Source of the DNA: a virus
Lineage: Duplodnaviria > Heunggongvirae > Uroviricota > Caudoviricetes
Direction: 5' to 3' (one strand)
Length of the DNA stretch: 52,166 bases
Virus record (IMG/VR): IMGVR_UViG_2844443253_000003
Below, piece after piece: positions 191 through 52,166 of the stretch; position 1 is the stretch's first letter, and each line of letters starts with the position of its first letter. The notes beneath the pieces were generated by a model, which did not search any database, was not told where the DNA came from, and saw only the letters and a program-made list of their open reading frames with translations. Made by a program: the position numbers and the translations under genes.

Positions 191-208
191 TTTAAATCAA
201 TAAGTTAC
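145..208 (+). repeat. attL core: 64 bp (3' part of tRNA-Thr plus 18 bp) repeated directly at 42729-42792 and inverted at 49020-49083
   Basis: repeat found by direct comparison; sequences diverge immediately outside these bounds. Confidence 0.85.
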
Positions 209-1368
209 ACATCATTAGTACCTTCCTTATTTTTTGACTGGGACAAATTTGGGACCGATGGGTTCAGGATCGAGTCTATTTGCCGTGCGTGTTCGGTAAG
301 GTGATTAGGTGCAAGGTGAGCATATCGACGAACCATTTCGATAGACTCCCAGCCTCCCATTTCCTGTAACACTGACAACGGGACTCCGGCTTGAACCAGC
401 CAACTTGCCCAGGTGTGTCTCAAGTCGTGAAATCTGAAATCATCAATACCAGCCCGTCTCAGCGCCGCTTTCCAGGCTGTGTTTGCGTCATACCGCATCT
501 TCCTTACTGTTGGCGCTTTCGTTCCGTCTGGTTTGGTACAGCTTTCCTTGTACACAAATACCCAACGGTGATGATTCCCGATTTGTTTTTTCAATACGCG
601 ACATGCAGTATCATTCAGCGCAACGCCAATTGCGCGGTTTGATTTACTCTCTTCCGGGTTTATCCATGCCACCCGGCGCTGCATATCTATTTGTTGCCAT
701 TCAAGGTTGATGATGTTCGAGCGTCTTAAACCTGTTGCCAGTGCAAATTCAACAACAGACTTTAATGGCTCCGGACATTCATCAATCAGCCTTTGTGCTT
801 CATGGGGCTCCAGCCAGCGGATCCGTTTATTCTTTGGTTGAGGCACTTTAATAATTGGTGCCTTATCCAGCATTTTCCATTCACGCTCTGCGGCTCTTAG
901 TAGGGCCTTTATAAATGAAAGATGCGTAGCCTTCGTTGCAACGGACGCTGGTTTTGGCGTGTATTCTGGAACAGGTTTCCCTTTTTTTCTGCATGCTTCT
1001 GCCCTGAGTCTCCAGTTTTCCTCATGACGCCGGTTCGTCATTTTCTGCATTGCTGAATAAATTTTTGATTCAGTAATGTCTCTTAGTTGCATTCCTGCGA
1101 AATGTTGAAGCCAGAATCCGATCCGGCTTTTGTCATCGTCCAGTGATTTTTTATGTGCTTTCTCTTCAAGCCACCTGACACACGCTTCCTCGAACGTTAT
1201 ATCAGGTATTTCACCAAGTTTGCTGACCCGCCATGCTTCAGCCTTTAGCTTGTCATGGAGTTCTGTCGCCTGCCTTTTGTCCTTTGTTCCAAGAGACTGT
1301 TTAAATCTTTTACCGTTCGGCAATGTGAAACTGGCGTACCATATTTCACCTCTGCGGAAGAGTGACAT
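205..1368 (-). CDS. int: phage tyrosine integrase
   Basis: 387-aa ORF ending inside the att core; C-terminal tyrosine-recombinase motifs ([19 protein letters not shown] ... VRRYAHL). Confidence 0.9.
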
Positions 1369-2546: not shown

Positions 2547-3287
2547 TCACTCTCCTTTGATGCGAATGCCAGCAGCGCGCTCGGCTTCACTTTGTTCCCA
2601 AAACCACTTGTGAAGCGCCATAAGCTTTTCGTCAATCGGTGCATATTTGCGATTAAAGTAGGCCTGAGCATCTTTCTCAGATTCGTCCGGTAATTCGCCA
2701 GGGCCAAACAGTGTGTTATAAATCCATGCCAGTCCGCTCTTAGCGTCGCCAGTTGCCTGCCATTCGATAATGGCAGCCTGCATGACCAGAATGTTTTTCC
2801 CGATTAATAGGTCCAGTTCTTTGAACCGGTTGCGGATGTATGCATTCTCGCTTTGTAATTTCGCGTTGCGCTTTTCTGAGGCTTCAAGTAACGCCTGCTT
2901 ATCGCGTAGCGCTTCTTCCAGTTCAGCAACATGGCATTCACTATCAATAAGGTTGTTCTCTGCGGCTTCCTGCTCTGATTTTCGCAGCAAAGCAGCATAC
3001 TTTAATGCGTCCTGTGCTTTCTGGAATTTAAGTGCATAGTCAGTGGCGATTTTTTCCAGTTCAGCGATGCGCTGTTTTGCTGTTTCCCGCTCATCCAGCA
3101 ATGCCAGCACGGTTTCTGGTCCGGCCAGAAGTTTGAAGGCGTTGAGCGCATCAATATCCACGTCGTAATCTTTAAGCTCCTGCTCGCTTAACAAATCATC
3201 ATCAACTGGCAACATTAACAGGCGTTCCATTGCTGGAATTGCACGTTCCGCCGCCTCACGCAGTGCCTGATAGTCAATCTCGCTCAT
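2547..3287 (-). CDS. Ead/Ea22-like early protein (paralog 1)
   Basis: 246 aa; shares INYQALRE / RIAELE motifs with 3525-4226 and 4524-5039. Confidence 0.55.
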   Translation of the reverse strand: MSEIDYQALREAAERAIPAMERLLMLPVDDDLLSEQELKDYDVDIDALNAFKLLAGPETVLALLDERETAKQRIAELEKIATDYALKFQKAQDALKYAALLRKSEQEAAENNLIDSECHVAELEEALRDKQALLEASEKRNAKLQSENAYIRNRFKELDLLIGKNILVMQAAIIEWQATGDAKSGLAWIYNTLFGPGELPDESEKDAQAYFNRKYAPIDEKLMALHKWFWEQSEAERAAGIRIKGE

Positions 3288-3561: not shown

Positions 3562-4226
3562 TCTTCAAGGGATTTCTCCGCATATTCACCAGACAGGCCA
3601 TCAATCGGATGCGGTTCATTAGCCAACTCTTCTTTCGCTGACAGAATCATGCGCGTCACGTCGAAAACTTCACGTAAAGACTTATTGATAAATCCGTGGT
3701 TGAAAGCAGCAGCAAGACGGCTTGCGGTATAGTTAATCCCCTCGTTGCGAGCCGCCGCACGAATTTCAGCCAGAAAAGCATCGGTGGCTGGAGTTTCAGG
3801 AATCCGTCTCCTCATCCGTTCTATTGCATGATTGAATCCGAAGTCTTCAGCAAGAGATACGTCATCCATATTGTCATTGTCATCCTCAATATCCCGTGGC
3901 TCCGGGATTGCAGACTTTATTCCAACATTCTCCACCGCCAGTGCCGCAAGATTAGTTTCCAGCTCTGCAATGCGTTTGCTTTGGGCTTCCCGTTCATCCA
4001 GCAGCGCCTGCACTACTACAGGATTGAAAGCTGCGATAAAACGAGCGTTGTTCTCTGCGTTTTTCTGTCCGTCAAAGCCGGGCCATTTGATAACGTCTTC
4101 ACATCGTTTATCACCGGGCGTATGCACAGCATACGTACCTGTACCCGTCGAAATAAACGCGACCCATTCGCCCTGTGTTGCCTGTTTTGCTATCTCACGC
4201 AGTGCCTGATAGTTAATTTTGGTCAT
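3525..4226 (-). CDS. Ead/Ea22-like early protein (paralog 2)
   Basis: 233 aa; motifs INYQALREIAKQATQGEW and TDAFLAEIRAA shared with paralogs. Confidence 0.55.
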   Translation of the reverse strand: MTKINYQALREIAKQATQGEWVAFISTGTGTYAVHTPGDKRCEDVIKWPGFDGQKNAENNARFIAAFNPVVVQALLDEREAQSKRIAELETNLAALAVENVGIKSAIPEPRDIEDDNDNMDDVSLAEDFGFNHAIERMRRRIPETPATDAFLAEIRAAARNEGINYTASRLAAAFNHGFINKSLREVFDVTRMILSAKEELANEPHPIDGLSGEYAEKSLEEWAEQIRKGDNQ

Positions 4227-14240: not shown

Positions 14241-14315
14241 GGGTCAGTCGTATAAAGGTCATTACGGAAGGCTGTTAACCTTCTTATCGTGGTTCGAGTC
14301 CACGCTGTCCCGCCA
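14241..14315 (+). tRNA. phage-encoded tRNA-Asn (anticodon GTT)
   Basis: hand-folded cloverleaf: anticodon loop CTGTTAA, T-arm CGTGGTTCGAGTCCACG, 3' CCA; one mismatch each in acceptor and D stems. Confidence 0.6.
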
Positions 14316-14320
14316 AACAT

Positions 14321-14396
14321 GCTGGTTTAGCTCCAATGGTAGAGCAGTCGCCTTGTAAGCGAATGGGTAGCGGTTCAAGTCCGTTAACCAGCACCA
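14321..14396 (+). tRNA. phage-encoded tRNA-Thr (anticodon TGT)
   Basis: hand-folded cloverleaf: acceptor GCTGGTT/AACCAGC, D-arm GCTCCAATGGTAGAGC, anticodon loop CTTGTAA, T-loop TTCAAGT, 3' ACCA. Confidence 0.7.
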
Positions 14397-39993: not shown

Positions 39994-41247
39994 TTAAGGC
40001 TGTTTTTTTATTAATGTCATCGTCCATCCTGCAGGGTTGAACTTGAAAGAATACGATTCTCCTGGTGCTAAGCTTTCAAATTTTTTAACTTGCTCTTTCC
40101 ACCCGTAATCTGGGAGTGGGGTAAGATTGAAAAAATATAAACATGAGATTAACGATGTTGTATATAACATCCATGGTAGGAATTTAAAGTGCAAGTGGGA
40201 AATATAGTTTAAGAAGTAAACCAATACAGAGTACCATATAATTGTTGGTATGACAGAATATCTTCCTCCGCCATGAATTAATAATGGCCATTGCTCACTT
40301 GTAGATGAAAGCATTGGTTTTGCTAGTGAAAACGTTAATGTTAGTATTGCGAAAACTATTGCCGAGCGCATGGGGTAATTGGAAACAATAAATGTAAAAA
40401 TAGTGATGGAAAGACAAATTATTGTAATTGCAATGCAAATTGAATCATGATTCCATAAAGGTGATAAAAAGTCACCATTAGCCCATAAACCCAGAAAAAC
40501 CTTTGTTGTTAATATTTTGCAAAGTGTTGCAAAATTAGCTCCAAGAACCATATCAACTCTGGTCTCAGAGGATGTCATAATAATAGAAATAAATTGAATC
40601 AAACAAATGGCAATGAAAACGTATTCGTGAGTGGTTATTTTTTTTGTAGATAAGCGTTTTTGTATAAGTATATTTATCCCTACCATTGGAGCCATGAATA
40701 CTATAAATGGACCACTTAGTCCACATATGATTATCGCTATATAATCGTGTGCTTTTTGATAATTATTTGTAGGCTTTGGAGCTAACATAACAAGAAGTAA
40801 ATATAGTGATAAATACCAATGATCATTAGTAACATTGGCGTGCACTTCTGATACTTCAGGCATTATTATAATAAACAAAGCAGTAAATATTCTTGGTGTT
40901 ATGTTTACGTAACTAAATCTTCCAGAGAGTATGAAAGATACAAGCAATGCCCTAACAATAATTGCGGAGATGTTAAAAATTAAAGGGGCATACATTAAAT
41001 TAAAATTTAATGATATGGAGGCAATAAGTTTTGATATGGTTTGATAATATCCATTTTGAGGGAATATCATTGATGTGAATATGCCATTATTGTATGCCAT
41101 AGCATACCATACATGACCATCTTCTGCCCAAAACTGCGGTGTTCTGATTATATCAGGGCGGCGCAAATACATCAAAATAACCGCAATGAAAAATACAGCA
41201 ATTAAGAAAAATAGTTTTTTTACATATGATGTTTTAAGGCTTTTCAT
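39994..41247 (-). CDS. serotype-specific O-antigen glucosyltransferase Gtr(type), polytopic membrane protein
   Basis: 417 aa, hydrophobic, AT-rich, third gene of gtrA-gtrB-gtr operon next to attR; exact type (GtrV/GtrX/other) not determinable here. Confidence 0.8.
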
Positions 41248-42167
41248 TTTTGTTTCTCATTTTTGATGATGTATTTGGGACGATGTTTGCTTTCAATATA
41301 GATTCTGCCTATATATTCACCGAGAACACCAATCCCGATCAGCTGCACTCCACCCAAGAAAAGTATTGATACAAGCAGGGAGGGATACCCGCGTACTGGG
41401 TTACCAAAGACAAGGGTGTCTATAATCATCCATGCACCATATAAAAATGAAATGCTTGCAACAAACAAGCCTATATAAGTCCATACGCGAAGAGGAAAGG
41501 TTGAAAAACTTGTGATACCTTCCAGTGCCAGATTCCATAATTTCCAGCCATTAAATTTTGAGATGCCAGCAACGCGCTCTGCGCGTACATATTCAACGAC
41601 ATCTGTCTGACCACCCACCCAGCTCAGTATGCCTTTCATGAAAAGATTGCGCTCAGGCAACAGTTTAATGTTCTCCACAACCTCACGAGACATGAGTCGA
41701 AAATCTCCGACATTTTCCTCGATCTTTGGGGTGCTTATTTTGTTGTGTAACTTATAGAACCACTCAGCTGTCTTACGTTTCAGTCGTCCATCAGTTGAGC
41801 GGTCTGAACGTTTAGCAAGCACCATGTCAGCACCTGCCTGCCACTTTTCAATAAGATGAGGGATAACCTCAATTGGGTCTTGCAGGTCGACATCAATAGG
41901 AATTACAGCATCGCCGCTTGCATGGTCTAACCCTGCAAATAAGGCTGGTTCTTTACCAAAGTTGCGTGTAAATGACAGCGGAACAACTAGCGGGTCTGAA
42001 ACAGCCAGCGCGTTAATAATTGACTCCGTGGCATCTTTACTTCCGTCATTTATGAATACAATTTCTACTTCATATGGCTTCAACTCTTGGAATTCACGTA
42101 CCGTTTTATAGAAAACAGGTATCGCTTCTTCTTCATTGAAGACAGGAACGACAAGAGATATTTTCAT
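41244..42167 (-). CDS. gtrB: bactoprenol glucosyltransferase GtrB
   Basis: 307 aa GT-2 family N-terminus [17 protein letters not shown]...INDGSKD; C-terminal TM helices. Confidence 0.9.
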
Positions 42168-42526
42168 TTCGCATCCCTAAAGACAATGAACTTTGAATAG
42201 ACGAAACCGCACACCAGGCTGATGGCGGAGAAGGTGATAAGAGTGACTATTGGAGGAAGTGAGCATTTATCAGCAGCCCAACCAACAATCACACTCAATA
42301 TTCCCATGAATCCCACGTATAACATGTAGCGCATCGCTGTAGTCGATGCTTTGAATGTGAATCTTGCATTCGCGAAGAAGCTAAAGCTCACAGCCACTAC
42401 GAAACCTGTGAAGTTTGCCAGGGCCTGACTGGTATGTGCGGCATAGATACATACACCAAAAACCACCCAGTGTATAAGTGTGTTCAGCACACCTATAGAT
42501 GTGTACTTTACAAATAACTTTAACAT
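42164..42526 (-). CDS. gtrA: GtrA flippase-like membrane protein
   Basis: 120 aa, four predicted TM segments, [23 protein letters not shown]. Confidence 0.9.
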
Positions 42527-42728
42527 TTATTTAATCAATGAGCTCTGAAAGGCATGAAGTCTATCATCCAAGTCTCAATTGATCGATACTTGCTATGTCT
42601 GATGAGACAAAACTGAGACACATAAGGCCTCACAATGGCTTGCAAGGCTTTACATGTTTTGATGTGGTGGGACGTGAGAGCGCAGTGTTGATGGGATAAT
42701 CTCTTGAATTACAAGCGGATTCTTATAA

Positions 42729-42792
42729 TTCGTAATGCGAAGGTCGTAGGTTCGACTCCTATTATCGGCACCATTTAAATCAATAAGTTACC
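42729..42792 (+). repeat. attR core: partial 3' tRNA-Thr copy, direct repeat of 145-208
   Basis: same 64-bp sequence; preceded by phage DNA instead of the tRNA 5' half. Confidence 0.85.
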
Positions 42793-43146
42793 TCGCATTT
42801 AAGTAAACTACGTTCTCCTCTTGTGCCGTATTTGTGCCATTGCGACTTATAATCGCATCGATTTTGCTCGCGTGCTCGGTAAGATGCCCGGCTGAAAGGT
42901 GGGCGTATCTTTGAACCATTTCGAGAGTTTCCCATCCTCCCATCTCTTTAAGCGCAAGAAGAGAGACACCGGACTGAACCAGCCAGCTTGCCCAGGTATG
43001 CCTCAGGTCATGGAAGCGGAAGTTGCTAATGCCTGCCCGCTTTAACGCTCCCTTCCATGCCTTGTTGCTGTCGGTTCTCATCTTCCTTACCGCTGCTGTT
43101 TTTGTTCCGTCGCTTCGGTAGGCAGGTTTGGTGTGGACAAACACCC
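42788..43146 (-). pseudogene. C-terminal fragment of a second, divergent tyrosine integrase, truncated by IS600
   Basis: [19 protein letters not shown]...VQRYAHL motifs; differs from int at 205-1368; reading frame runs into the IS600 end at 43147. Confidence 0.7.
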
Positions 43147-44412
43147 TGAGGTGTACTGGCAATAGCGGACACTACCATTTGTTCTTTTTTTAAGCAGCCA
43201 TCTGATGATATTTTTCCCTGAAGGCTGCCGGGGAGATATTCCCCAGACGAGAGTGACGACGCTGACGATTGTAGAAAATCTCAATGTATTCCCGTATTAC
43301 TGAGATGGCTTCATCCCGGTTATTAAAACGATAGTGGCTCAGGCTCTCATTTTTCAGCGTTCCCCAGAAGCTTTCCATCGGAGCGTTGTCGTAACAGTTA
43401 CCTTTACGCGACATTGATGTTTTCAGACCAAACTGCTCCTGTATGACCCGGTAATCGTATGCGCAGTACTGTGAACCTCGATCAGAGTGGTGGATTAGCC
43501 CGGCAGGTGGGCGCTGGCTCCTGAGCGCCATAAACAGGGCTTTACCTGTCAGCTCTTTTGTCATGCGCTCTCCCATGGCGTAGCCGACAATTTCGCACGT
43601 ATAAACATCTTTGATGCCAGCGAGGTACAACCATCCCTCCTGTGTGGCAACATACGTCAGGTCCGCCACCCAGACCTGATTTGGTGCTGTAGGAGCGAAC
43701 GTCTGGTTCAGCAGATTTGGCGCAACTGGCAGATTGTGGTTCGGGTTCGTAGTCGCTCTGAACTTGCGTTTCTGCTTACAGCGTAGCCTCAGCTCCTTAC
43801 GAAGACGTGCCAGTCGGTCACGACCAACGATGATGCCATTCTCTGCCAGCTCCGTCTGGAGCCGCCGGGTTCCATATGTTTCGCGAGTGCGGATATGTGC
43901 CACCTTAATCTCCGGTTTTAGCCGCTCATCACTTTGTTTTCTGTCTGAGGGTTCATGCTGTACCCAGTTGTAATAACCGCTCCTGGATACACCAAATACC
44001 TGACACATCGCTTCAATGGGAAATTGTTGTCGCCATTGTTCGATTAACGCGTATTTTTCAGCGACTCCTGTGCAAAATACGCTGTTGCTTTTTTTTAATA
44101 TATCTCGCTCAAGGCGAGCTTCATTTAACGCCTTACGCAGTTGCAGAATTTCAGATTCCAGTTCAGCCAGCGTGCGGGAACCAGGAGTACCGAGCCCTTT
44201 TCTGGCGGCGGTAACCCATTGTCCTAAAGTGCCTTCAGGAAGGAATAATCGGGAAGCGTCTTCACTGATCGAAAGTTGATTTTCAAGAACCGTTCTGACA
44301 GCTTCGGCTTTGAACTCTTTAGAGTAACGTTGGGTTTTTCTGCTCATTATTAGCTCCTTCTGATGCCATTCTATTTCAGGAAGGAGTGTCCGTTAAACTC
44401 AGGCTACCTCAG
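43147..44412 (-). mobile_element. IS600 (IS3 family) copy 1, no flanking target duplication
   Basis: ends TGAGGTAGCCTGAGTTTAACGGACACTCC / GGTAGTGTCCGCTATTGCCAGTACACCTCA shared with copies at 47312 and 51306; flanking triplets differ (CCC vs GAC). Confidence 0.85.
43190..44347 (-). CDS. IS600 transposase as a contiguous OrfAB fusion (385 aa)
   Basis: A-run of 8 at the slippery site (vs 7 in copy 2) puts orfA and orfB in one frame. Confidence 0.8.
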   Translation of the reverse strand: MSRKTQRYSKEFKAEAVRTVLENQLSISEDASRLFLPEGTLGQWVTAARKGLGTPGSRTLAELESEILQLRKALNEARLERDILKKSNSVFCTGVAEKYALIEQWRQQFPIEAMCQVFGVSRSGYYNWVQHEPSDRKQSDERLKPEIKVAHIRTRETYGTRRLQTELAENGIIVGRDRLARLRKELRLRCKQKRKFRATTNPNHNLPVAPNLLNQTFAPTAPNQVWVADLTYVATQEGWLYLAGIKDVYTCEIVGYAMGERMTKELTGKALFMALRSQRPPAGLIHHSDRGSQYCAYDYRVIQEQFGLKTSMSRKGNCYDNAPMESFWGTLKNESLSHYRFNNRDEAISVIREYIEIFYNRQRRHSRLGNISPAAFREKYHQMAA

Positions 44413-44509
44413 ACGTCCCGTATGATGGATATGAAATCAAGACAATCACACATCCTGAACCGCCCCGGGAATCCTGGAGACTAAACTTCCTGAGAAAGAG
44501 GTAAACAGG

Positions 44510-44832
44510 ATGACTAAAAATACTCGTTTTTCCCCCGAAGTCCGTCAACGGGCAGTCCGTATGGTTCTGGAAAGTCAGGGCGAATATGACTCACAATGGG
44601 CGACAATTTGTTCCATTGCCCCAAAGATTGGCTGTACGCCGGAGACTCTGCGTGTCTGGGGTCGCCAGCATGAGCGGGATACCGGGGGCGGTGATGGAGG
44701 GCTCACCACCGCTGAACGTCAGCGTCTGAAAGAGCTGGAGCGTGAAAATCGTGAACTGCGCCGCAGTAACGATATCCTTCGCCAGGCTTCCGCTTATTTT
44801 GCGAAGGCGGAGTTCGACCGCCTCTGGAAAAA

Positions 44833-44836
<4 letters not shown>
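44510..44836 (+). CDS. IS629 OrfA
   Basis: [50 protein letters not shown]. Confidence 0.85.
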
Positions 44837-45719
<883 letters not shown>

Positions 45720-45761
45720 GTTCACAGATAAAACACTCTCCAGGAAACCCGGGGCGGTTCA

Positions 45762-46062
45762 GAAAGTAAATGAAACAGATGCTGAATACCTGGTGCGTAA
45801 ATTCGATGAGCTTGAAGCTAAATGTGCAGCACAGGAAAACAAAGTAATACCAGTGTCAACTGAACTGCCACCAGCAAATGAAAGTGTTTTGTTATTCGAT
45901 GCTAACGGAGAAGGCTGGCTAATTGGCTGGCGTTCTCTCTGGTACACCTGGGGACAAAAAGAAACCGGAGAATGGCAGTGGACATTTCAGGTCGGGGACC
46001 TTGAAAACGTCAATATCACTCACTGGGCAGTAATGCCAAAAGCACCGGAGGCTGGAGCATAA
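45762..46062 (+). pseudogene. Ead/Ea22-like gene, C-terminal fragment truncated by IS629
   Basis: [19 protein letters not shown]... similar to 4524-5039; ORF upstream part lies inside IS629. Confidence 0.55.
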
Positions 46063-46367
46063 TGACCACTTTTACCGACAAAGAACTGATTAAAGAAATT
46101 AAAGAGCGTATCAGCAGCCTTGACGTGCGAGACGATATTGAGCGCCGTGCTTATGAAATCGCACTCCTATCTCTGGAAGTAGAACCAGATGAACGCGAAG
46201 CTTATGAATTATTCATGGAAAAGCGTTTTGGTGACTTAGTAGATCGTCGGAGAGCAAAAAACGGCGATAACGAATACATGGCATGGGATATGACTCTCGG
46301 TTGGATCGTCTGGCAGCAACGAGCTGGTATCCATTTCTCAACAATGTCACAGCAAGAGGTGAAATAA
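46062..46367 (+). CDS. hypothetical phage protein (mosaic relative of 1595-1921)
   Basis: C-terminal 55 aa near-identical to 1595-1921 product, N-terminus different. Confidence 0.5.
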   Translation: MTTFTDKELIKEIKERISSLDVRDDIERRAYEIALLSLEVEPDEREAYELFMEKRFGDLVDRRRAKNGDNEYMAWDMTLGWIVWQQRAGIHFSTMSQQEVK

Positions 46368-46717
46368 TGGAGCCATACAGCCTCACACTCGATGAGGCCT
46401 GTCATTTTCTCAAGATATCCAGACCGACTGCCATTAACTGGATACGCACAGGGCGTCTTCAGGCAACACGCAAAGATCCCACTAAGAATAAATCTCCTTA
46501 CCTCACAACACGACAAGCCTGCATTGCGGCTCTTCAGTCTCCGCTGCATACTGTCCAGGTGAGCGCGGGTGATGGCATAACAGAGGAAAGAAAATGTCAC
46601 TCTTCCGCAGAGGTGAAATATGGTACGCCAGTTTCACATTGCCGAACGGTAAAAGATTTAAACAGTCTCTTGGAACAAAGGACAAAAGGCAGGCGACAGA
46701 ACTCCATGACAAGCTAA
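46367..46717 (+). CDS. xis: excisionase-like protein, second copy
   Basis: near-identical to 1245-1595 product. Confidence 0.55.
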
Positions 46718-47311
46718 AGGCTGAAGCATGGCGGGTCAGCAAACTTGGTGAAATACCTGATATAACGTTCGAGGAAGCGTGTGTCAGGTGGCTTGAAGAG
46801 AAAGCACATAAAAAATCACTGGACGATGACAAAAGCCGGATCGGATTCTGGCTTCAACATTTCGCAGGAATACAACTAAGAGACATTACTGAATCAAAAA
46901 TTTATTCAGCAATGCAGAAAATGACGAACCGGCGTCATGAGGAAAACTGGAAACTCAGGGCAGAATCATGCAGAAAAAAAGGGAAACCTGTTCCAGAATA
47001 CACGCCAAAACCAGCGTCCGTTGCAACGAAGGCTACGCATCTTTCATTTATAAAGGCCCTACTAAGAGCCGCAGAGCGTGAATGGAAAATGCTGGATAAG
47101 GCACCAATTATTAAAGTGCCTCAACCAAAGAATAAACGGATCCGCTGGCTGGAGCCCCATGAAGCACAAAGGCTGATTGATGAATGTCCGGAGCCATTAA
47201 AGTCTGTTGTTGAATTTGCACTGGCAACAGGCTTAAGACGCTCGAACATCATCAACCTTGAATGGCAACAAATAAATATGCAGCGCCGGGTGGCATGGAT
47301 AAACCCGGAAG
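46594..47311 (+). pseudogene. int: integrase N-terminal fragment (second copy) interrupted by IS600
   Basis: about 98% identical to N-terminal 238 aa of int 205-1368; frame broken at IS600 left end. Confidence 0.8.
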
Positions 47312-47375
47312 TGAGGTAGCCTGAGTTTAACGGACACTCCTTCCTGAAATAGAATGGCATCAGAAGGAGCTAATA

Positions 47376-47678
47376 ATGAGCAGAAAAACCCAACGTTACT
47401 CTAAAGAGTTCAAAGCCGAAGCTGTCAGAACGGTTCTTGAAAATCAACTTTCGATCAGTGAAGGCGCTTCCCGATTATCTCTTCCTGAAGGCACTTTAGG
47501 ACAATGGGTTACCGCCGCCAGAAAAGGGCTCGGTACTCCTGGTTCCCGCACGCTGGCTGAACTGGAATCTGAAATTCTGCAACTGCGTAAGGCGTTAAAT
47601 GAAGCTCGCCTTGAGCGAGATATATTAAAAAAAGCAACAGCGTATTTTGCACAGGAGTCGCTGAAAAATACGCGTTAA
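47376..47678 (+). CDS. IS600 OrfA
   Basis: 100 aa MSRKTQRYSKEFKAEAVRTVLENQ... Confidence 0.85.
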   Translation: MSRKTQRYSKEFKAEAVRTVLENQLSISEGASRLSLPEGTLGQWVTAARKGLGTPGSRTLAELESEILQLRKALNEARLERDILKKATAYFAQESLKNTR

Positions 47679-47713
47679 TCGAACAATGGCGACAACAATT
47701 TCCCATTGAAGCG

Positions 47714-48532
47714 ATGTGTCAGGTATTTGGTGTATCCAGGAGCGGTTATTACAACTGGGTACAGCATGAACCCTCAGACAGAAAACAAAGTGATGAGCGG
47801 CTAAAACTGGAGATTAAGGTGGCACATATCCGCACTCGCGAAACATATGGAACCCGGCGGCTCCAGACGGAGCTGGCAGAGAATGGCATCATCGTTGGTC
47901 GTGACCGACTGGCACGTCTTCGTAAGGAGCTAAGGCTACGCTGTAAGCAGAAACGCAAGTTCAGAGCGACTACGAACCCGAACCACAATCTGCCAGTTGC
48001 GCCAAATCTGCTGAACCAGACGTTCGCTCCTACAGCACCAAATCAGGTCTGGGTGGCGGACCTGACGTATGTTGCCACACAGGAGGGATGGTTGTACCTC
48101 GCTGGCATCAAAGATGTTTATACGTGCGAAATTGTCGGCTACGCCATGGGAGAGCGCATGACAAAAGAGCTGACAGGTAAAGCCCTGTTTATGGCGCTCA
48201 GGAGCCAGCGCCCACCTGCCGGGCTAATCCACCACTCTGATCGAGGTTCACAGTACTGCGCATACGATTACCGGGTCATACAGGAGCAGTCTGGTCTGAA
48301 AACATCAATGTCGCGTAAAGGTAACTGTTACGACAACGCTCCGATGGAAAGCTTCTGGGGAACGCTGAAAAATGAGAGCCTGAGCCACTATCGTTTTAAT
48401 AACCGGGATGAAGCCATCTCAGTAATACGGGAATACATTGAGATTTTCTACAATCGTCAGCGTCGTCACTCTCGTCTGGGGAATATCTCCCCGGCAGCCT
48501 TCAGGGAAAAATATCATCAGATGGCTGCTTAA
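47714..48532 (+). CDS. IS600 OrfB (DDE domain)
   Basis: 272 aa in -1 frame relative to orfA; A7 slippery run at 47627-47633. Confidence 0.85.
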   Translation: MCQVFGVSRSGYYNWVQHEPSDRKQSDERLKLEIKVAHIRTRETYGTRRLQTELAENGIIVGRDRLARLRKELRLRCKQKRKFRATTNPNHNLPVAPNLLNQTFAPTAPNQVWVADLTYVATQEGWLYLAGIKDVYTCEIVGYAMGERMTKELTGKALFMALRSQRPPAGLIHHSDRGSQYCAYDYRVIQEQSGLKTSMSRKGNCYDNAPMESFWGTLKNESLSHYRFNNRDEAISVIREYIEIFYNRQRRHSRLGNISPAAFREKYHQMAA

Positions 48533-48574
48533 AAAAGAACAAATGGTAGTGTCCGCTATTGCCAGTACACCTCA

Positions 48575-49023
48575 AAGAGAGTAAATCAAACCGCGCAATT
48601 GGCGTTGCGCTGAATGATACTGCATGTCGCGTATTGAAAAAACAAATCGGAAATCATCACCGTTGGGTATTTGTGTACAAGGAAAGCTGTACCAAACCAG
48701 ACGGAACGAAAGCGCCAACAGTAAGGAAGATGCGGTATGACGCAAACACAGCCTGGAAAGCGGCGCTGAGACGGGCTGGTATTGATGATTTCAGATTTCA
48801 CGACTTGAGACACACCTGGGCAAGTTGGCTGGTTCAAGCCGGAGTCCCGTTATCAGTGTTACAGGAAATGGGAGGCTGGGAGTCTATCGAAATGGTTCGT
48901 CGATATGCTCACCTCGCACCTAATCACCTTACCGAACACGCACGGCAAATAGACTTGATTCTGAACCCATCGGTCCCAAATTTGTCCCAGTCAAGAAATA
49001 AGGAAGGTACTAATGATGTGTAA
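48575..49023 (+). pseudogene. int: integrase C-terminal fragment (second copy)
   Basis: ESKSNRAIG...[16 protein letters not shown]...GTNDV, near-identical to C-terminus of int 205-1368. Confidence 0.8.
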
Positions 49024-49083
49024 CTTATTGATTTAAATGGTGCCGATAATAGGAGTCGAACCTACGACCTTCGCATTACGAAT
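49020..49083 (-). repeat. third copy of the 64-bp att core, inverted, joined to unique DNA
   Basis: reverse complement of 145-208; sequence beyond 49084 matches neither the tRNA 5' half nor the gtrA promoter region. Confidence 0.8.
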
Positions 49084-49371
49084 CTGTAGCACCAATCATA
49101 ACTATCTGTTTTAGCAAGCATTAACCGCATTCACTAAGCTATAGTTGATGACACAAACAGAAAGTTGATGCATGATGTTGCCATATATATGTCACAAATA
49201 CGGCACAACGATCTTCAAACATATAGCCACACATTCACAGAAGAGCACAAAGCCTTGCAATCCAGTGCAAAGCTTGGTGTGTCTCCGTTTTGTTTCATCA
49301 GTTACACATAACTATATGATCATTAACTAAAAGTCAGTATACTTGGAGAAATTTTAATTGCGTAATAGAGC

Positions 49372-50544
49372 ATGCATATGATTGAAATTAACAGTTTATT
49401 ATTAATAACATCCGTGATATTGATGTCGTTATTAGCTGTGGGGTTATTTGATAAAATTTCCCCAATAAATCTTGTTGAGCACGGCAGGAATAATCAAATA
49501 GATGGAATGCGGGGGTTCTTAGCAATTTTCGTGCTTATTCATCACGCAGCAATTTGGAATGGATACTTGTCATCTGGAGTATGGGAAGCACCTTCATCAA
49601 ATCTGTTAGCAAATTTAGGCCAAGTTGGTGTGTCATTCTTTTTTATGATTACTGGTTATCTGTTCTTTTCAAAGATTATCTCTGGAGATCAGGACTGGAC
49701 AAGGCTTTATGTATCAAGATTACTACGATTAACCCCAATGTTCATAGTTAGCCTATGTCTCATTTTTATCATTGTAGGTTTTAAGTCTGGATGGAGAATG
49801 CAGGTATCCACAGAAGAGCTTTTTGTGTCAATAATGAAGTGGTTGCCATTCACTGCGCTAGGTATGCCGAACATTAATGACGTAAAAGATTCATTTACTA
49901 TCAATGCCGCTGTAACATGGACACTTGTATATGAATGGTTCTTTTATTTTTCTCTTCCGGTAATTTCCGCGCTCATAAAAAGAAAAGTCAGTATTTACAT
50001 GGTTATGATTAGCGCAATATCGCTATTTGTTTTCATTTTATTTTTCAGTAAAATACACATAGCATCATTTCTTTTTGGGCTCCTGGCATTTTTGCTAAAT
50101 AAATCAAAGATAGTCAATGGAATTGCCAAAGCAAAAGTAACACCAATTATAATAACTGCGATAATGGTTTTTGAAATGACGTATTTCAAAACAACTTACG
50201 CACCGCTACCACTGATTCTTTGTGGAATAACATTTATCATTATCGCATCAGGTTGTGATTTGTATGGAATATTAAGATTAAATATAACCAGAAAGCTAGG
50301 AGAAACTACCTACAGCGTTTACCTTCTGCATGGGATATTCCTTTATTGCCTAATGACGTGGATTATTCCTAATAATTACACTGAAAATACATTTATCATA
50401 CTGGTAAGCACAACTGCATTTCTTATTACGTTCACATCATGCCTAACTTTTAAATTAATAGAGACGCCATTCATCAAATTAACAAAACAAACCACAACTT
50501 TAGTAAAAGAATTAATACCCACATTAACAAACAACAATCAATAA
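49372..50544 (+). CDS. acyltransferase-3 family integral membrane protein, candidate O-antigen O-acetyltransferase
   Basis: 390 aa, about 10 TM segments, AT-rich; N-proximal motif IDGMRGFLAIFVLIHH typical of acyltransferase-3/OafA-like enzymes. Confidence 0.7.
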   Translation: MHMIEINSLLLITSVILMSLLAVGLFDKISPINLVEHGRNNQIDGMRGFLAIFVLIHHAAIWNGYLSSGVWEAPSSNLLANLGQVGVSFFFMITGYLFFSKIISGDQDWTRLYVSRLLRLTPMFIVSLCLIFIIVGFKSGWRMQVSTEELFVSIMKWLPFTALGMPNINDVKDSFTINAAVTWTLVYEWFFYFSLPVISALIKRKVSIYMVMISAISLFVFILFFSKIHIASFLFGLLAFLLNKSKIVNGIAKAKVTPIIITAIMVFEMTYFKTTYAPLPLILCGITFIIIASGCDLYGILRLNITRKLGETTYSVYLLHGIFLYCLMTWIIPNNYTENTFIILVSTTAFLITFTSCLTFKLIETPFIKLTKQTTTLVKELIPTLTNNNQ

Positions 50545-50597
50545 ACAATAAACATAAGCCGCCCTACATATATGTCCAAATGGGGCGGCGAATGTAT

Positions 50598-51305
50598 TTA
50601 TATTAGTCTGGTAATGCTAAATGCAAACGAACTGGAGATTCCTGCCCCGCTAAGCGTATTGCGCAGGGTCACCCTAAATGTATCTACGCCAATATAAGTA
50701 ACATCACAACTAACTGAATCAGGCGCAGATATAGGTGTTATCTGCACAATATAACCGCTAGCAACTGCTGCGAGCGGATGAGAAAAGCTAACATCATACA
50801 CACCTGTAGAAACCACGTTAACCGATGAAACACCAGTAGCAACGTCGATACTACCATTGGCGTTAATTTTTCCCGAGCGTGTGACTGACAATGCAGAAGC
50901 CGATGTTACCTTACTGGTTGTTTCTGTAAAAACACACCCAATGTCAACTACCTCGCAATTAGCTCCTGTTATCCAGTATGGTCGTTCTGCACTTGGCTGA
51001 TAATCCCCTGCGCTCTGGAACGTTGTGCCGTTGAGTATGACTGTAACTTTTCCCCCACCTGAGCTTGTTACTTGAATATTCGTGTGCGTGTATCTTGCAC
51101 TGCTCACGCGATGAAAATTTCCACCGTTTATAACCACAGTTACAGGGCGCGTCCCAGTATTATCTATAGCAAGGTCTGCCCCCCCGGCATTAGCCTCAAA
51201 GTATGGGTTGTTTAATACCAAAGCGCACGAACCGTTAAGGCCATTTATAGCTAATTGCGCACCACCTGTACTGGAATCCCCCTGAGTACCATTTCCTTCA
51301 CAAGT
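50598..51305 (-). pseudogene. N-terminally truncated gene of unknown function (Ser/Thr/Gly/Val-rich), cut by IS600
   Basis: open frame continues without a start codon up to the IS600 end at 51306. Confidence 0.45.
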
Positions 51306-52166
51306 TGAGGTGTACTGGCAATAGCGGACACTACCATTTGTTCTTTTTTAAGCAGCCATCTGATGATATTTTTCCCTGAAGGCTGCCGGGGAGATATTCC
51401 CCAGACGAGAGTGACGACGCTGACGATTGTAGAAAATCTCAATGTATTCCCGTATTACTGAGATGGCTTCATCCCGGTTATTAAAACGATAGTGGCTCAG
51501 GCTCTCATTTTTCAGCGTTCCCCAGAAGCTTTCCATCGGAGCGTTGTCGTAACAGTTACCTTTACGCGACATTGATGTTTTCAGACCAAACTGCTCCTGT
51601 ATGACCCGGTAATCGTATGCGCAGTACTGTGAACCTCGATCAGAGTGGTGGATTAGCCCGGCAGGTGGGCGCTGGCTCCTGAGCGCCATAAACAGGGCTT
51701 TACCTGTCAGCTCTTTTGTCATGCGCTCTCCCATGGCGTAGCCGACAATTTCGCACGTATAAACATCTTTGATGCCAGCGAGGTACAACCATCCCTCCTG
51801 TGTGGCAACATACGTCAGGTCCGCCACCCAGACCTGATTTGGTGCTGTAGGAGCGAACGTCTGGTTCAGCAGATTTGGCGCAACTGGCAGATTGTGGTTC
51901 GGGTTCGTAGTCGCTCTGAACTTGCGTTTCTGCTTACAGCGTAGCCTCAGCTCCTTACGAAGACGTGCCAGTCGGTCACGACCAACGATGATGCCATTCT
52001 CTGCCAGCTCCGTCTGGAGCCGCCGGGTTCCATATGTTTCGCGAGTGCGGATATGTGCCACCTTAATCTCCGGTTTTAGCCGCTCATCACTTTGTTTTCT
52101 GTCTGAGGGTTCATGCTGTACCCAGTTGTAATAACCGCTCCTGGATACACCAAATACCTGACACAT
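51306..52166 (-). mobile_element. IS600 copy 3, partial (runs off window end)
   Basis: right-end repeat and orfB (51348-52166) matching copies 1 and 2. Confidence 0.8.

Follow-up and report, generated by a model that had tools for sequence, protein, structure and literature searches.

oacB, a known S. flexneri O-antigen acetyltransferase gene, as probable cargo of a decayed P22-like prophage in a thrW prophage array

The window, i.e., the whole analysed stretch of 52,166 nucleotides (IMG/VR record IMGVR_UViG_2844443253_000003), contains the tRNA-Thr(CGU) gene thrW at positions 115–190, the 3' part of which constitutes a 64-bp attachment (att) core. Exact copies of this core are located at 145–208, 42728–42791, and 49020–49083, the third in inverted orientation, and repeats of this length are too long to be expected by chance. 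The main prophage carries a gtrV gene 98.5% identical to that of SfV, and homology to the free SfV phage stops precisely at 42791. The features from this point to the window end are the following:

42728–42791, plus strand: att core copy 2 (64 bp, exact repeat), linking the right end (gtrA side) of the SfV prophage with what remains of the adjacent prophage's integrase gene.
42788–43146, minus strand: int(B), an HK446-type thrW integrase gene truncated by IS600 copy 1, with ~118 codons left at the 3' end.
43147–44411, minus strand: IS600 copy 1, flanked by CCC and GAC, with no matching target duplication.
44456–45765, plus strand: IS629-like element of the IS3 family with inverted ends, HTH_Tnp_1 and rve domains, and no matching target duplication.
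45766–46593, plus strand: early-region remnant of an SfV-like prophage (truncated DUF551 gene, 101-aa ORF, excisionase-like HTH_17 ORF).
46594–47311, plus strand: 5' part of int(C), an SfV-type integrase gene.
47312–48574, plus strand: IS600 copy 2, a simple insertion in int(C), with an AAG duplication at 47309–47311 and 48575–48577.
48578–49023, plus strand: 3' part of int(C), giving an intact 387-aa ORF when rejoined with 46594–47311.
49020–49083, minus strand: third copy of the 64-bp att core, in the opposite orientation to copies 1 and 2 and matching the attP core of HK446 at 100% identity.
49084–49371, plus strand: attP arm and oacB upstream region, a 288-bp spacer from the core to the ATG.
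49372–50544, plus strand: oacB, encoding a 390-aa integral-membrane O-acetyltransferase of the AT3 family, assigned from its identity to Sf101 and 2457T sequences, Pfam, critical residues, and the literature (PMC8952252, PMC4206707, PMC8973906).
50558–50590, no strand: GC-rich hairpin in the gap where oacB and the tailspike remnant converge (predicted fold of −20.3 kcal/mol, z −3.6).
50598–51305, minus strand: tailspike pseudogene, a P22-like tailspike gene that IS600 copy 3 has truncated to its C-terminal 235 codons.
51306–52166, minus strand: IS600 copy 3, represented by 861 bp of its right end as far as the window reaches, with the inner flank AGT.

The acyltransferase-3 gene at 49372–50544 is oacB, a known S. 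flexneri O-antigen acetyltransferase gene. Its GC content is 0.34, against 0.48 across the window, and the product matches Pfam Acyl_transf_3 (PF01757) over residues 41–353 with an E-value of 2.8e-32, in agreement with the AT-rich, 390-aa acyltransferase gene of the preliminary description. OacB is identical to its Sf101 counterpart at 388 of 390 positions (99.5%) without gaps and is an exact protein match to that of S. flexneri 2457T (AE014073); it recurs unchanged on at least 1000 contigs. All seven residues found by mutagenesis to be critical for OacB, R47, H58, W71, F98, R116, R119, and S146 (PMC8952252), are kept, and a search for inactivating mutations in oacB revealed none. Sf6 Oac shares just 26% identity with OacB over 184 residues, while OacD gave no significant match to it by BLASTP. 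The closest homologues are LPS acetyltransferases, and the earlier proposals of an oac-type O-antigen O-acetyltransferase, and of a second, acetylating O-antigen modification locus beside gtr, were borne out by oacB and the gtrV of the SfV prophage. The finding is real, but already known and ordinary.

The third att core and the spacer of about 290 bp noticed previously were confirmed as an exact 64-bp core and 288 bp, respectively. Positions 49084–49293 represent an HK446-type arm, 93.3% identical to the HK446 attP arm, and the sequence from 49241 onwards is common to the oacB cassettes of Sf101 and E. coli G3/10. Fold prediction placed a hairpin, conserved and followed by a U-rich tail, at 49249–49301, upstream of oacB. 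The predicted hairpin at 50558–50590 probably acts as a bidirectional terminator; it was not called by a simple terminator scan. Being placed as cargo beside a phage attP arm and core and followed by a tail gene, oacB shows the layout of a lysogenic-conversion module and takes the place that gtrABC has in SfV, with att on one side and the tail gene on the other; this agrees with the likeness to the int–attP–gtrA arrangement of the main prophage pointed out before.

Two types of integrase genes adjoin the second and third cores. At the DNA level, int(B) matches the 3' end of the HK446 integrase gene with 97.8% identity, whereas its identity to the two other int copies of the window is just about 69%. 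Removal of IS600 copy 2 and one AAG from int(C) yields a 387-aa ORF differing from the main prophage integrase at 6 residues; the integrase piece previously seen next to att is therefore indeed present, but it is part of a complete gene split by IS600 copy 2 rather than a stray fragment. The excisionase-like HTH_17 ORF (46283–46717) overlaps the int(C) start, and the region 46156–47315 is 98% identical to positions 647–1806 of the main prophage.

The tailspike remnant is a feature missed in the preliminary description. Its 207-aa ORF, starting with TTG, is 76% identical to residues 374–580 of the Sf101 tail protein, and the DNA of oacB and the remnant is collinear with oacB and the tail protein gene of Sf101. 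With only 76% identity, the carrier was therefore related to Sf101 but not Sf101 itself. The related chromosome L005 (CP026871) is 99.6–99.8% identical to window positions 42000–52166, except for one extra IS, and beyond IS600 copy 3 it contains genes of P22-type gp16, gp20, gp7, gp14, gp26, and gp10, about 96% identical to those of Sf101. In E. coli CEA601S, a P22-like prophage carries an HK446-type arm next to the tailspike, without oacB.

In S. flexneri 2a (strains 301 and 2457T), the chromosomal oacB locus was reportedly described by Wang et al. (2014, J Bacteriol 196:1525) as a "transposon-like structure" upstream of adrA. The window contains thrW, three att cores, int, and IS600, and adrA (a MASE2/GGDEF gene) is located downstream in related chromosomes, beyond the window; the locus thus occupies the known oacB position, the proA/thrW–adrA region with an integrase and insertion sequences. 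The earlier suggestion of a known type near thrW in S. flexneri was correct. Apart from the identical protein, the region 49000–49400 (int 3' end, att core, arm, and oacB start) is 100% identical to 2457T and that from 48575 to the window end, with the rest of oacB, the tailspike remnant, and IS600 copy 3, is 99.7% identical; the loci of both 2a strains likewise lie beside a thrW-borne gtr prophage. However, this prophage is SfII in the 2a strains and SfV (gtrV) in the window, where IS600 copy 2 additionally interrupts int(C), while 2457T has lost 2.06 kb kept in the window (44412–46472), including the 44-bp orphan sequence, IS629, the DUF551 remnant, the 101-aa ORF, and most of xis. Past IS600 copy 3, the 2457T sequence passes directly into the adrA upstream region, whereas L005 keeps the Sf101-like virion genes.

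Sf101 (KJ832078), the sole isolated phage known to carry oacB, shares with the window the 131 bp upstream of this gene, a convergent tailspike gene downstream, and a P22-like virion module, besides OacB itself. It differs in having another integrase and integrating at sbcB (PMC4159516), as opposed to the HK446-type thrW att module of the window, in the tailspike C-terminus, and in being an intact phage rather than a remnant. The gtrABC modules of SfV, SfII, SfI, and SfX at thrW have in common with oacB the slot between attP and the tail gene, transcription away from att, the 64-bp core, and a similar hairpin element upstream of the cargo gene, but they represent three-gene glucosylation operons instead of a single AT3 acetyltransferase gene, and the arm sequence is otherwise unrelated. 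Sf6 Oac and OacD (SfII) both match the AT3 domain PF01757, and OacC of serotype 6, with an acyl_trans_3/COG1835 domain, was reported to be 72% identical to OacB (PMC4206707). Like OacB, these three are prophage-borne O-antigen modifiers, and oac of Sf6 is also located between the tailspike gene and int; however, the acceptor positions of Oac (a RhaI 2-O-acetyltransferase) and OacD are unlike that of OacB.

The enzymatic activity and the phage-resistance phenotype of OacB are known from the literature. The gene confers 3/4-O-acetylation of RhaIII in serotypes 1a, 1b, 2a, 5a, and Y (PMC4206707, PMC4159516), the extent of which differs among strains (PMC4206707); its deletion in 2457T altered the serotype, and O-factor 9 strains resist Sf6 (PMC8973906). 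A remnant-borne oacB was functional in strain Y394, as determined by agglutination (PMC5596473). As a polytopic inner-membrane AT3 enzyme, OacB draws acetyl groups from cytoplasmic acetyl-CoA and transfers them to O-3 or O-4 of rhamnose III in the S. flexneri O-antigen repeat, creating group O-factor 9; such acetylation alters antibody recognition and blocks O-antigen-dependent phages such as Sf6. Since the main prophage is SfV (gtrV), the strain would be of the serotype 5 type, combining glucosylation with RhaIII 3/4-O-acetylation, an already known combination, and the action of oacB beside the SfV gtrABV operon would be predicted to result in a glucosylated and acetylated, serotype 5a-like O-antigen. 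The gene is likely to be expressed in the source strain.

IS600 copies 2 and 3 do flank the acyltransferase block, as stated in the preliminary description, where it was proposed that the block could move as a composite transposon. Under such a hypothesis, the whole IS600–int'–att–oacB–tailspike'–IS600 segment would have arrived by IS600 transposition and would still be mobile as a unit. Two near-identical IS600 copies bracket the block, the oacB locus has been termed "transposon-like" (PMC4206707, PMC8973906), and IS-mediated mobilisation of oacB was proposed by the authors of the Sf101 study (PMC4159516). Nevertheless, we regard this scenario as extremely improbable. Copy 2 is flanked by an AAG duplication of its own, and its removal restores int; therefore, it inserted alone, into a gene already beside oacB. 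It occurs in L005 and L006 but not in the other eight of the ten related chromosomes, 2457T among them, where int is intact or, at the least, free of interruption. It is thus a simple insertion, specific to a lineage, in an int gene that is complete in other respects. The outer flanks are unmatched in every pairing (left, AAG or CCC; right, ACT, as read in L005), so that the target duplication looked for past copy 3 was not found. Moreover, IS629 interrupts copy 3 at each of the ten related loci, the virion genes adjoining the tailspike fall outside the supposed unit, and oacB occurs without IS600 flanks in the prophages of Sf101 and E. coli G3/10. All ten chromosomal copies occupy one locus, with no IS600-bounded unit at differing genomic sites among them. 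The composite transposon was rejected on the basis of the single insertion of copy 2, the unmatched outer flanks, the single locus, and the virion genes beyond copy 3.

The most probable reading, to which we assign a probability of about 0.88, is that oacB, the RhaIII acetyltransferase gene, is cargo of a decayed P22-like prophage in a thrW tandem array and is not carried on a transposon. It is based on the identity and intactness of the gene, the simple insertion of copy 2, the affinities of the arm and integrases, and the virion genes of the sister genome. The gene would represent the right-end cargo of a decayed P22-like (Sf101-like) prophage with an HK446-type thrW integration module, and the array was probably arranged in the order of SfV, the oacB phage, and a third SfV-like prophage. 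That serotype-converting phages can integrate in tandem at thrW has been demonstrated experimentally (PMC3306764). Later insertions of IS600 and IS629, deletions, and one inversion may have led to the present order, comprising the int(B) remnant, IS600, IS629, early genes, int(C) interrupted by IS600, an att core, the HK446-type arm, oacB, the tailspike remnant, and IS600. The inversion is suggested by orientations only, and its second breakpoint would be located outside the window and the 10-kb flanks in L005. In this reading, int(B) is probably the integrase of the phage that brought oacB. Given such a history, the int–att–oacB order is probably a hybrid junction of two tandem prophages, like gtrA–att–int(B) at 42.7 kb, and not a native attP.

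Alternatively, int(C), the core, the arm, and oacB could form the native, unsplit attP of a single oacB phage with an SfV-type integrase, e.g., at a dilysogen junction. The contiguous xis–int–att–cargo–tail order exactly matches a circular SfV-type genome, the 64-bp core is common to both integrase types, and phage mosaicism permits an SfV-type int and an HK446-type arm in one phage. This appears unlikely, however, since the integrase adjoining the HK446-type arm (93%) is not cognate: int(C) is of the SfV type and only 69% identical to HK446 int, while the complementary HK446-type integrase (97.8%), truncated by IS600, is found at core 2, exactly where an HK446-att phage, once integrated, would have its left end. 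Therefore, a hybrid junction is preferred, in which the SfV-type int(C) next to oacB probably belongs to another prophage than the oacB arm; no phage combining an SfV-type int, this arm, and oacB was found among 50,697 records. For a prophage in such a state of decay, one could also hypothesise that oacB is a silent or non-functional relic like its neighbours, leaving gtrV alone to modify the O-antigen. All neighbouring phage genes are truncated or interrupted, the degree of 3/4-O-acetylation varies from strain to strain (PMC4206707), and a promoter could not be assigned with confidence, the promoter scan giving 11 sites versus 8.3 expected from shuffles, without enrichment. Nevertheless, this is very unlikely, taking into account the full-length ORF, which encodes the same protein as the 2457T gene whose deletion shifts the serotype (PMC8973906), the retention of all critical residues, the 100% identity of the 288 bp upstream of the oacB ATG in 2457T and nine other related loci, and the activity of the same remnant-borne gene in Y394 (PMC5596473).

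The IS600 copies are 99.6–100% identical to each other, copies 2 and 3 being mutually inverted and copies 1 and 3 direct. In copy 1, the slippery run is A8, resulting in an in-frame OrfAB fusion of 385 aa. The 44-bp orphan sequence preceding the IS629-like element (44412–44455) occurs only in the window and L005.

Comparison of the 390-aa acyltransferase, which matched the Pfam family Acyl_transf_3 (PF01757) with an E-value of 2.8e-32, with other O-acetyltransferases identified it as OacB. It shares 388 of 390 residues, without gaps, with OacB of the P22-like phage Sf101, and an identical protein is encoded by S. flexneri 2a 2457T (GenBank AE014073) and many other S. flexneri chromosomes (at least 1000 contigs). 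The DNA of oacB and of the tailspike remnant next to it is collinear with oacB and the tail protein gene of Sf101, and the 288 bp located 5' of oacB match 2457T at 100%. In contrast, Oac of phage Sf6 showed 26% identity over 184 residues, and no significant match was found with OacD of SfII; OacC has been reported to be 72% identical to OacB (PMC4206707). Seven OacB residues found to be critical by site-directed mutagenesis (PMC8952252), namely R47, H58, W71, F98, R116, R119, and S146, are all retained in the window protein.

According to the literature, oacB is responsible for 3-/4-O-acetylation of rhamnose III in serotypes 1a, 1b, 2a, 5a, and Y. Deletion of oacB in 2457T changes the serotype, strains with O-factor 9 are resistant to phage Sf6 (PMC8973906), and the same gene, borne on a remnant, has been shown to work in strain Y394 (PMC5596473). 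The enzyme is an integral membrane protein of the AT3-only type, for which 11 transmembrane segments are predicted (PMC8952252). By the mechanism established for the AT3 family (PMC9833829, PMC9558356), it would take acetyl from cytoplasmic acetyl-CoA and pass it through the membrane to the periplasmic face, where the O-antigen repeat unit is acetylated. Judging from sequence identity, OacB would be active in the strain carrying the window. The gtrV gene of the main SfV-like prophage is 98.5% identical to that of SfV and therefore places the window in a strain of serotype 5 type; oacB has been reported from this background before. The OacB identity and the gtrV prophage alongside support the proposal of the preliminary description that the gene is a second O-antigen modification locus of a known type. 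Since oacB determines O-factor 9, it matters for S. flexneri serotyping, O-antigen vaccine design, and resistance to Sf6-type phages, all of which is established.

Six-frame ORF analysis and repeat searches resulted in the following layout, with positions in the window:

115-190, thrW, tRNA-Thr(CGU) gene
145-208, att core 1
205-1368, minus strand, int(A), integrase of the main prophage
39994-42526, minus strand, gtrA, gtrB, and the 417-aa gtr gene of the main prophage
42728-42791, att core 2
42788-43146, minus strand, int(B), truncated integrase
43147-44411, minus strand, IS600 copy 1
44412-44455, orphan sequence of 44 bp between IS600 copy 1 and the IS629-like element
44456-45765, IS629-like element
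45766-46593, phage early-gene remnant
46594-47311, int(C), 5' part
47312-48574, plus strand, IS600 copy 2
48578-49023, int(C), 3' part
49020-49083, att core 3, inverted
288-bp spacer from core 3 to oacB
49372-50544, oacB, 390-aa ORF
50558-50590, GC-rich hairpin in the 53-bp gap between oacB and the tailspike
50598-51305, minus strand, tailspike remnant
51306 to the window end, minus strand, IS600 copy 3

The 64-bp att core occurs three times without a mismatch, and the IS600 copies are 99.6–100% identical among themselves, which confirms the right-end features noticed initially. The hairpin at 50558-50590 (fold z of -3.6) probably terminates both convergent genes, oacB and the tailspike. No promoter was assigned to oacB, since promoter-like sites were not enriched over shuffled sequences, and an Rfam scan of 48900-49500 returned only chance-level matches (E-values of 0.27 and 0.53), far under the gathering scores.

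The integrase piece beside core 3, previously taken for a fragment, is indeed present, but it belongs to a complete gene, int(C), which IS600 copy 2 has split and of which it forms the 3' portion. The 3-bp sequence AAG is duplicated on both sides of copy 2, and removal of this copy and one AAG restores a 387-aa ORF differing from int(A) at six residues. The presence of its own target duplication in an otherwise intact gene means that copy 2 was inserted alone, when the int-att-oacB order already existed. Copy 2 is missing in eight of the ten related oacB-bearing S. flexneri chromosomal loci, being held only by CP026871 and CP130061; an uninterrupted 387-aa integrase was called beside oacB in seven of these eight, while L011 has no called integrase. 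Both oacB and the locus in which it lies had been described and characterised by experiment before, and only two things are added here. One is this insertion of IS600 into the adjacent integrase gene, which is specific to a lineage. The other is a sharper description of the locus, which is better called a decayed tandem prophage junction than a transposon. In CP130061 (520-4729 and 7164-9203 of the extracted locus), the IS600 inside int(C) is itself broken by IS1, and int(C) is preceded on its left by a gp16-gp14 virion fragment with a left-end stub of IS600 copy 3; the oacB region of this chromosome has been repeatedly reshuffled.

The IS600-bounded composite transposon suggested for 47312-52166 is contradicted by the single insertion of copy 2, by unmatched outer flanks, and by virion genes located beyond copy 3. 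The outer flanks are AAG for copy 2, CCC for copy 1, and ACT for copy 3, with no identical pairing. CP026871, which is 99.6–99.8% identical to 42000-52166 of the window, one additional IS aside, allowed both sides of copy 3 to be read; ACT was found outside and AGT inside, with no matching duplication. IS629 interrupts IS600 copy 3 in all ten related loci. Beyond copy 3, CP026871 carries the P22-type genes gp16, gp20, gp7, gp14, gp26, and gp10, about 96% identical to those of Sf101, in an order and orientation that fit former contiguity with the truncated tailspike. Genomes of the 2457T type have lost these virion genes by deletion, and IS629 there directly adjoins the sequence upstream of adrA. 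Elsewhere, oacB sits in IS600-free prophages, those of Sf101, which integrates at sbcB (PMC4159516), and of E. coli G3/10 (P22-like). No paper turned up in a literature search combining oacB and IS600, and when 46000-52166 was compared by megablast with the complete genomes of E. coli, the matches were swamped by IS600. With the locus better described as a decayed tandem prophage junction than as a transposon, horizontal spread of oacB is expected to proceed via Sf101-type phages and recombination rather than IS600 transposition.

On the oacB side of core 3, a stretch of 210 bp (49084-49293) shares 93.3% identity with the attP arm of phage HK446, whose core is 100% identical to core 3. On the opposite side, int(C) is of the SfV type, sharing 98% identity with int(A) and only 69% with the integrase gene of HK446. 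The matching half of an HK446-type attP stands at core 2, where the int(B) remnant and the 3' end of the HK446 integrase gene agree at 97.8%. Homology to free SfV ends exactly at the end of core 2, indicating that gtrA-core 2-int(B) is the junction of two different prophages; the int-attP-gtrA order attributed to the main prophage, in which the integrase remnant is of the HK446 and not the SfV type, is thus also a boundary of two prophages. A mosaic phage joining an SfV-type integrase to an HK446-type arm is a possible source of the arrangement at core 3. The simplest reading of both junctions would be a tandem array at thrW in which SfV was followed by a P22-like phage carrying oacB and an integration module of the HK446 type, and then by a third, SfV-like prophage, which would have supplied int(C), xis, and the DUF551 gene. 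All of the DNA rightward of IS600 copy 1 would then have been inverted through IS elements, with deletions in addition. The tandem array is supported by the experimentally demonstrated tandem integration of serotype-converting phages at thrW (PMC3306764) and by a P22-like prophage of E. coli CEA601S, in which the same arm lies directly beside the tailspike, without oacB. The tandem array with inversion predicts that the Sf101-like virion genes are followed at their far end by phage early genes, an excisionase gene, and the 5' portion (~270 codons) of an integrase gene of the HK446 type; this integrase part would end at ...CATAAGAGAT, abutting an IS600 or IS629 copy oriented opposite to copy 1.

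The 44-bp orphan was considered as the continuation of int(B), with copy 1 as a simple insertion, and rejected, as it does not match the HK446 integrase gene upstream of the cut; it occurs only in the window and CP026871. The IS629-like element has unmatched flanks (TCC and GAA) and truncates the DUF551 gene. These features are signs of further rearrangement.

The HK446-type arm contains a hairpin (49249-49301) with a stem of about 15 bp and a U-rich tail. Its counterparts are located in the HK446 attP arm (3085-3131 of the extracted locus) and upstream of gtrA (42599-42651, minus strand), the latter being divergent in sequence and still base-paired (z of -5.3); stem pairing is kept across all three despite sequence differences. 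The hairpin lies across attP from int and so may serve as a terminator for int or as a site of the sib type. The oacB cassettes of Sf101, at sbcB, and of commensal E. coli G3/10 (NZ_CP060075; 6001-9071 of the extracted locus) have a common left boundary at window position 49241, 8 bp before the hairpin. In G3/10, the sole oacB carrier among 5,426 complete E. coli genomes, oacB (99.3% identical in DNA) lies at the end of a P22-like prophage by ybhB/bioA, the lambda attachment region, and this prophage is a third integration module for the cassette. A boundary at the thrW-arm hairpin suggests that oacB may have been captured first beside a thrW-type attP and later swapped between integration modules by recombination at the hairpin. 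Taken together, we consider it somewhat more probable than the contrary (about 0.55) that the "transposon-like" oacB locus across S. flexneri is a fossil triple tandem lysogen at thrW, that the original Shigella carrier was a P22-like podophage with an HK446-type thrW module, and that the cassette spread by recombination at the hairpin "linker". What is left of the carrier's integrase would then be the remnant at the SfV/att junction, and the IS-mediated inversion would have joined the cargo end of this phage to the third prophage's integrase.

The exact OacB protein was found in 2,935 collection blocks, 2,774 of them on contigs of only 2–5 kb, which matches the spacing of the flanking IS copies and indicates that short-read assemblies routinely break there. 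IS600 copy 1 (ORF 43190-44347, minus strand) has eight A's, not seven, at the orfA/orfB slippery run, so OrfA and OrfB are in frame as a 385-aa ORF that does not need programmed frameshifting; the same 385-aa ORF is also called at this position in the related S. flexneri chromosomes. In copy 2, with a run of seven A's, the two ORFs are separate. The main SfV-like prophage has its own tRNA-Asn(GUU) and tRNA-Thr(UGU) genes at 14241-14396. In its early region, two adjacent ORFs on the minus strand share a 49-bp direct repeat, 78% identical, at their starts (3239-3287 and 4178-4226) and may be paralogous genes.
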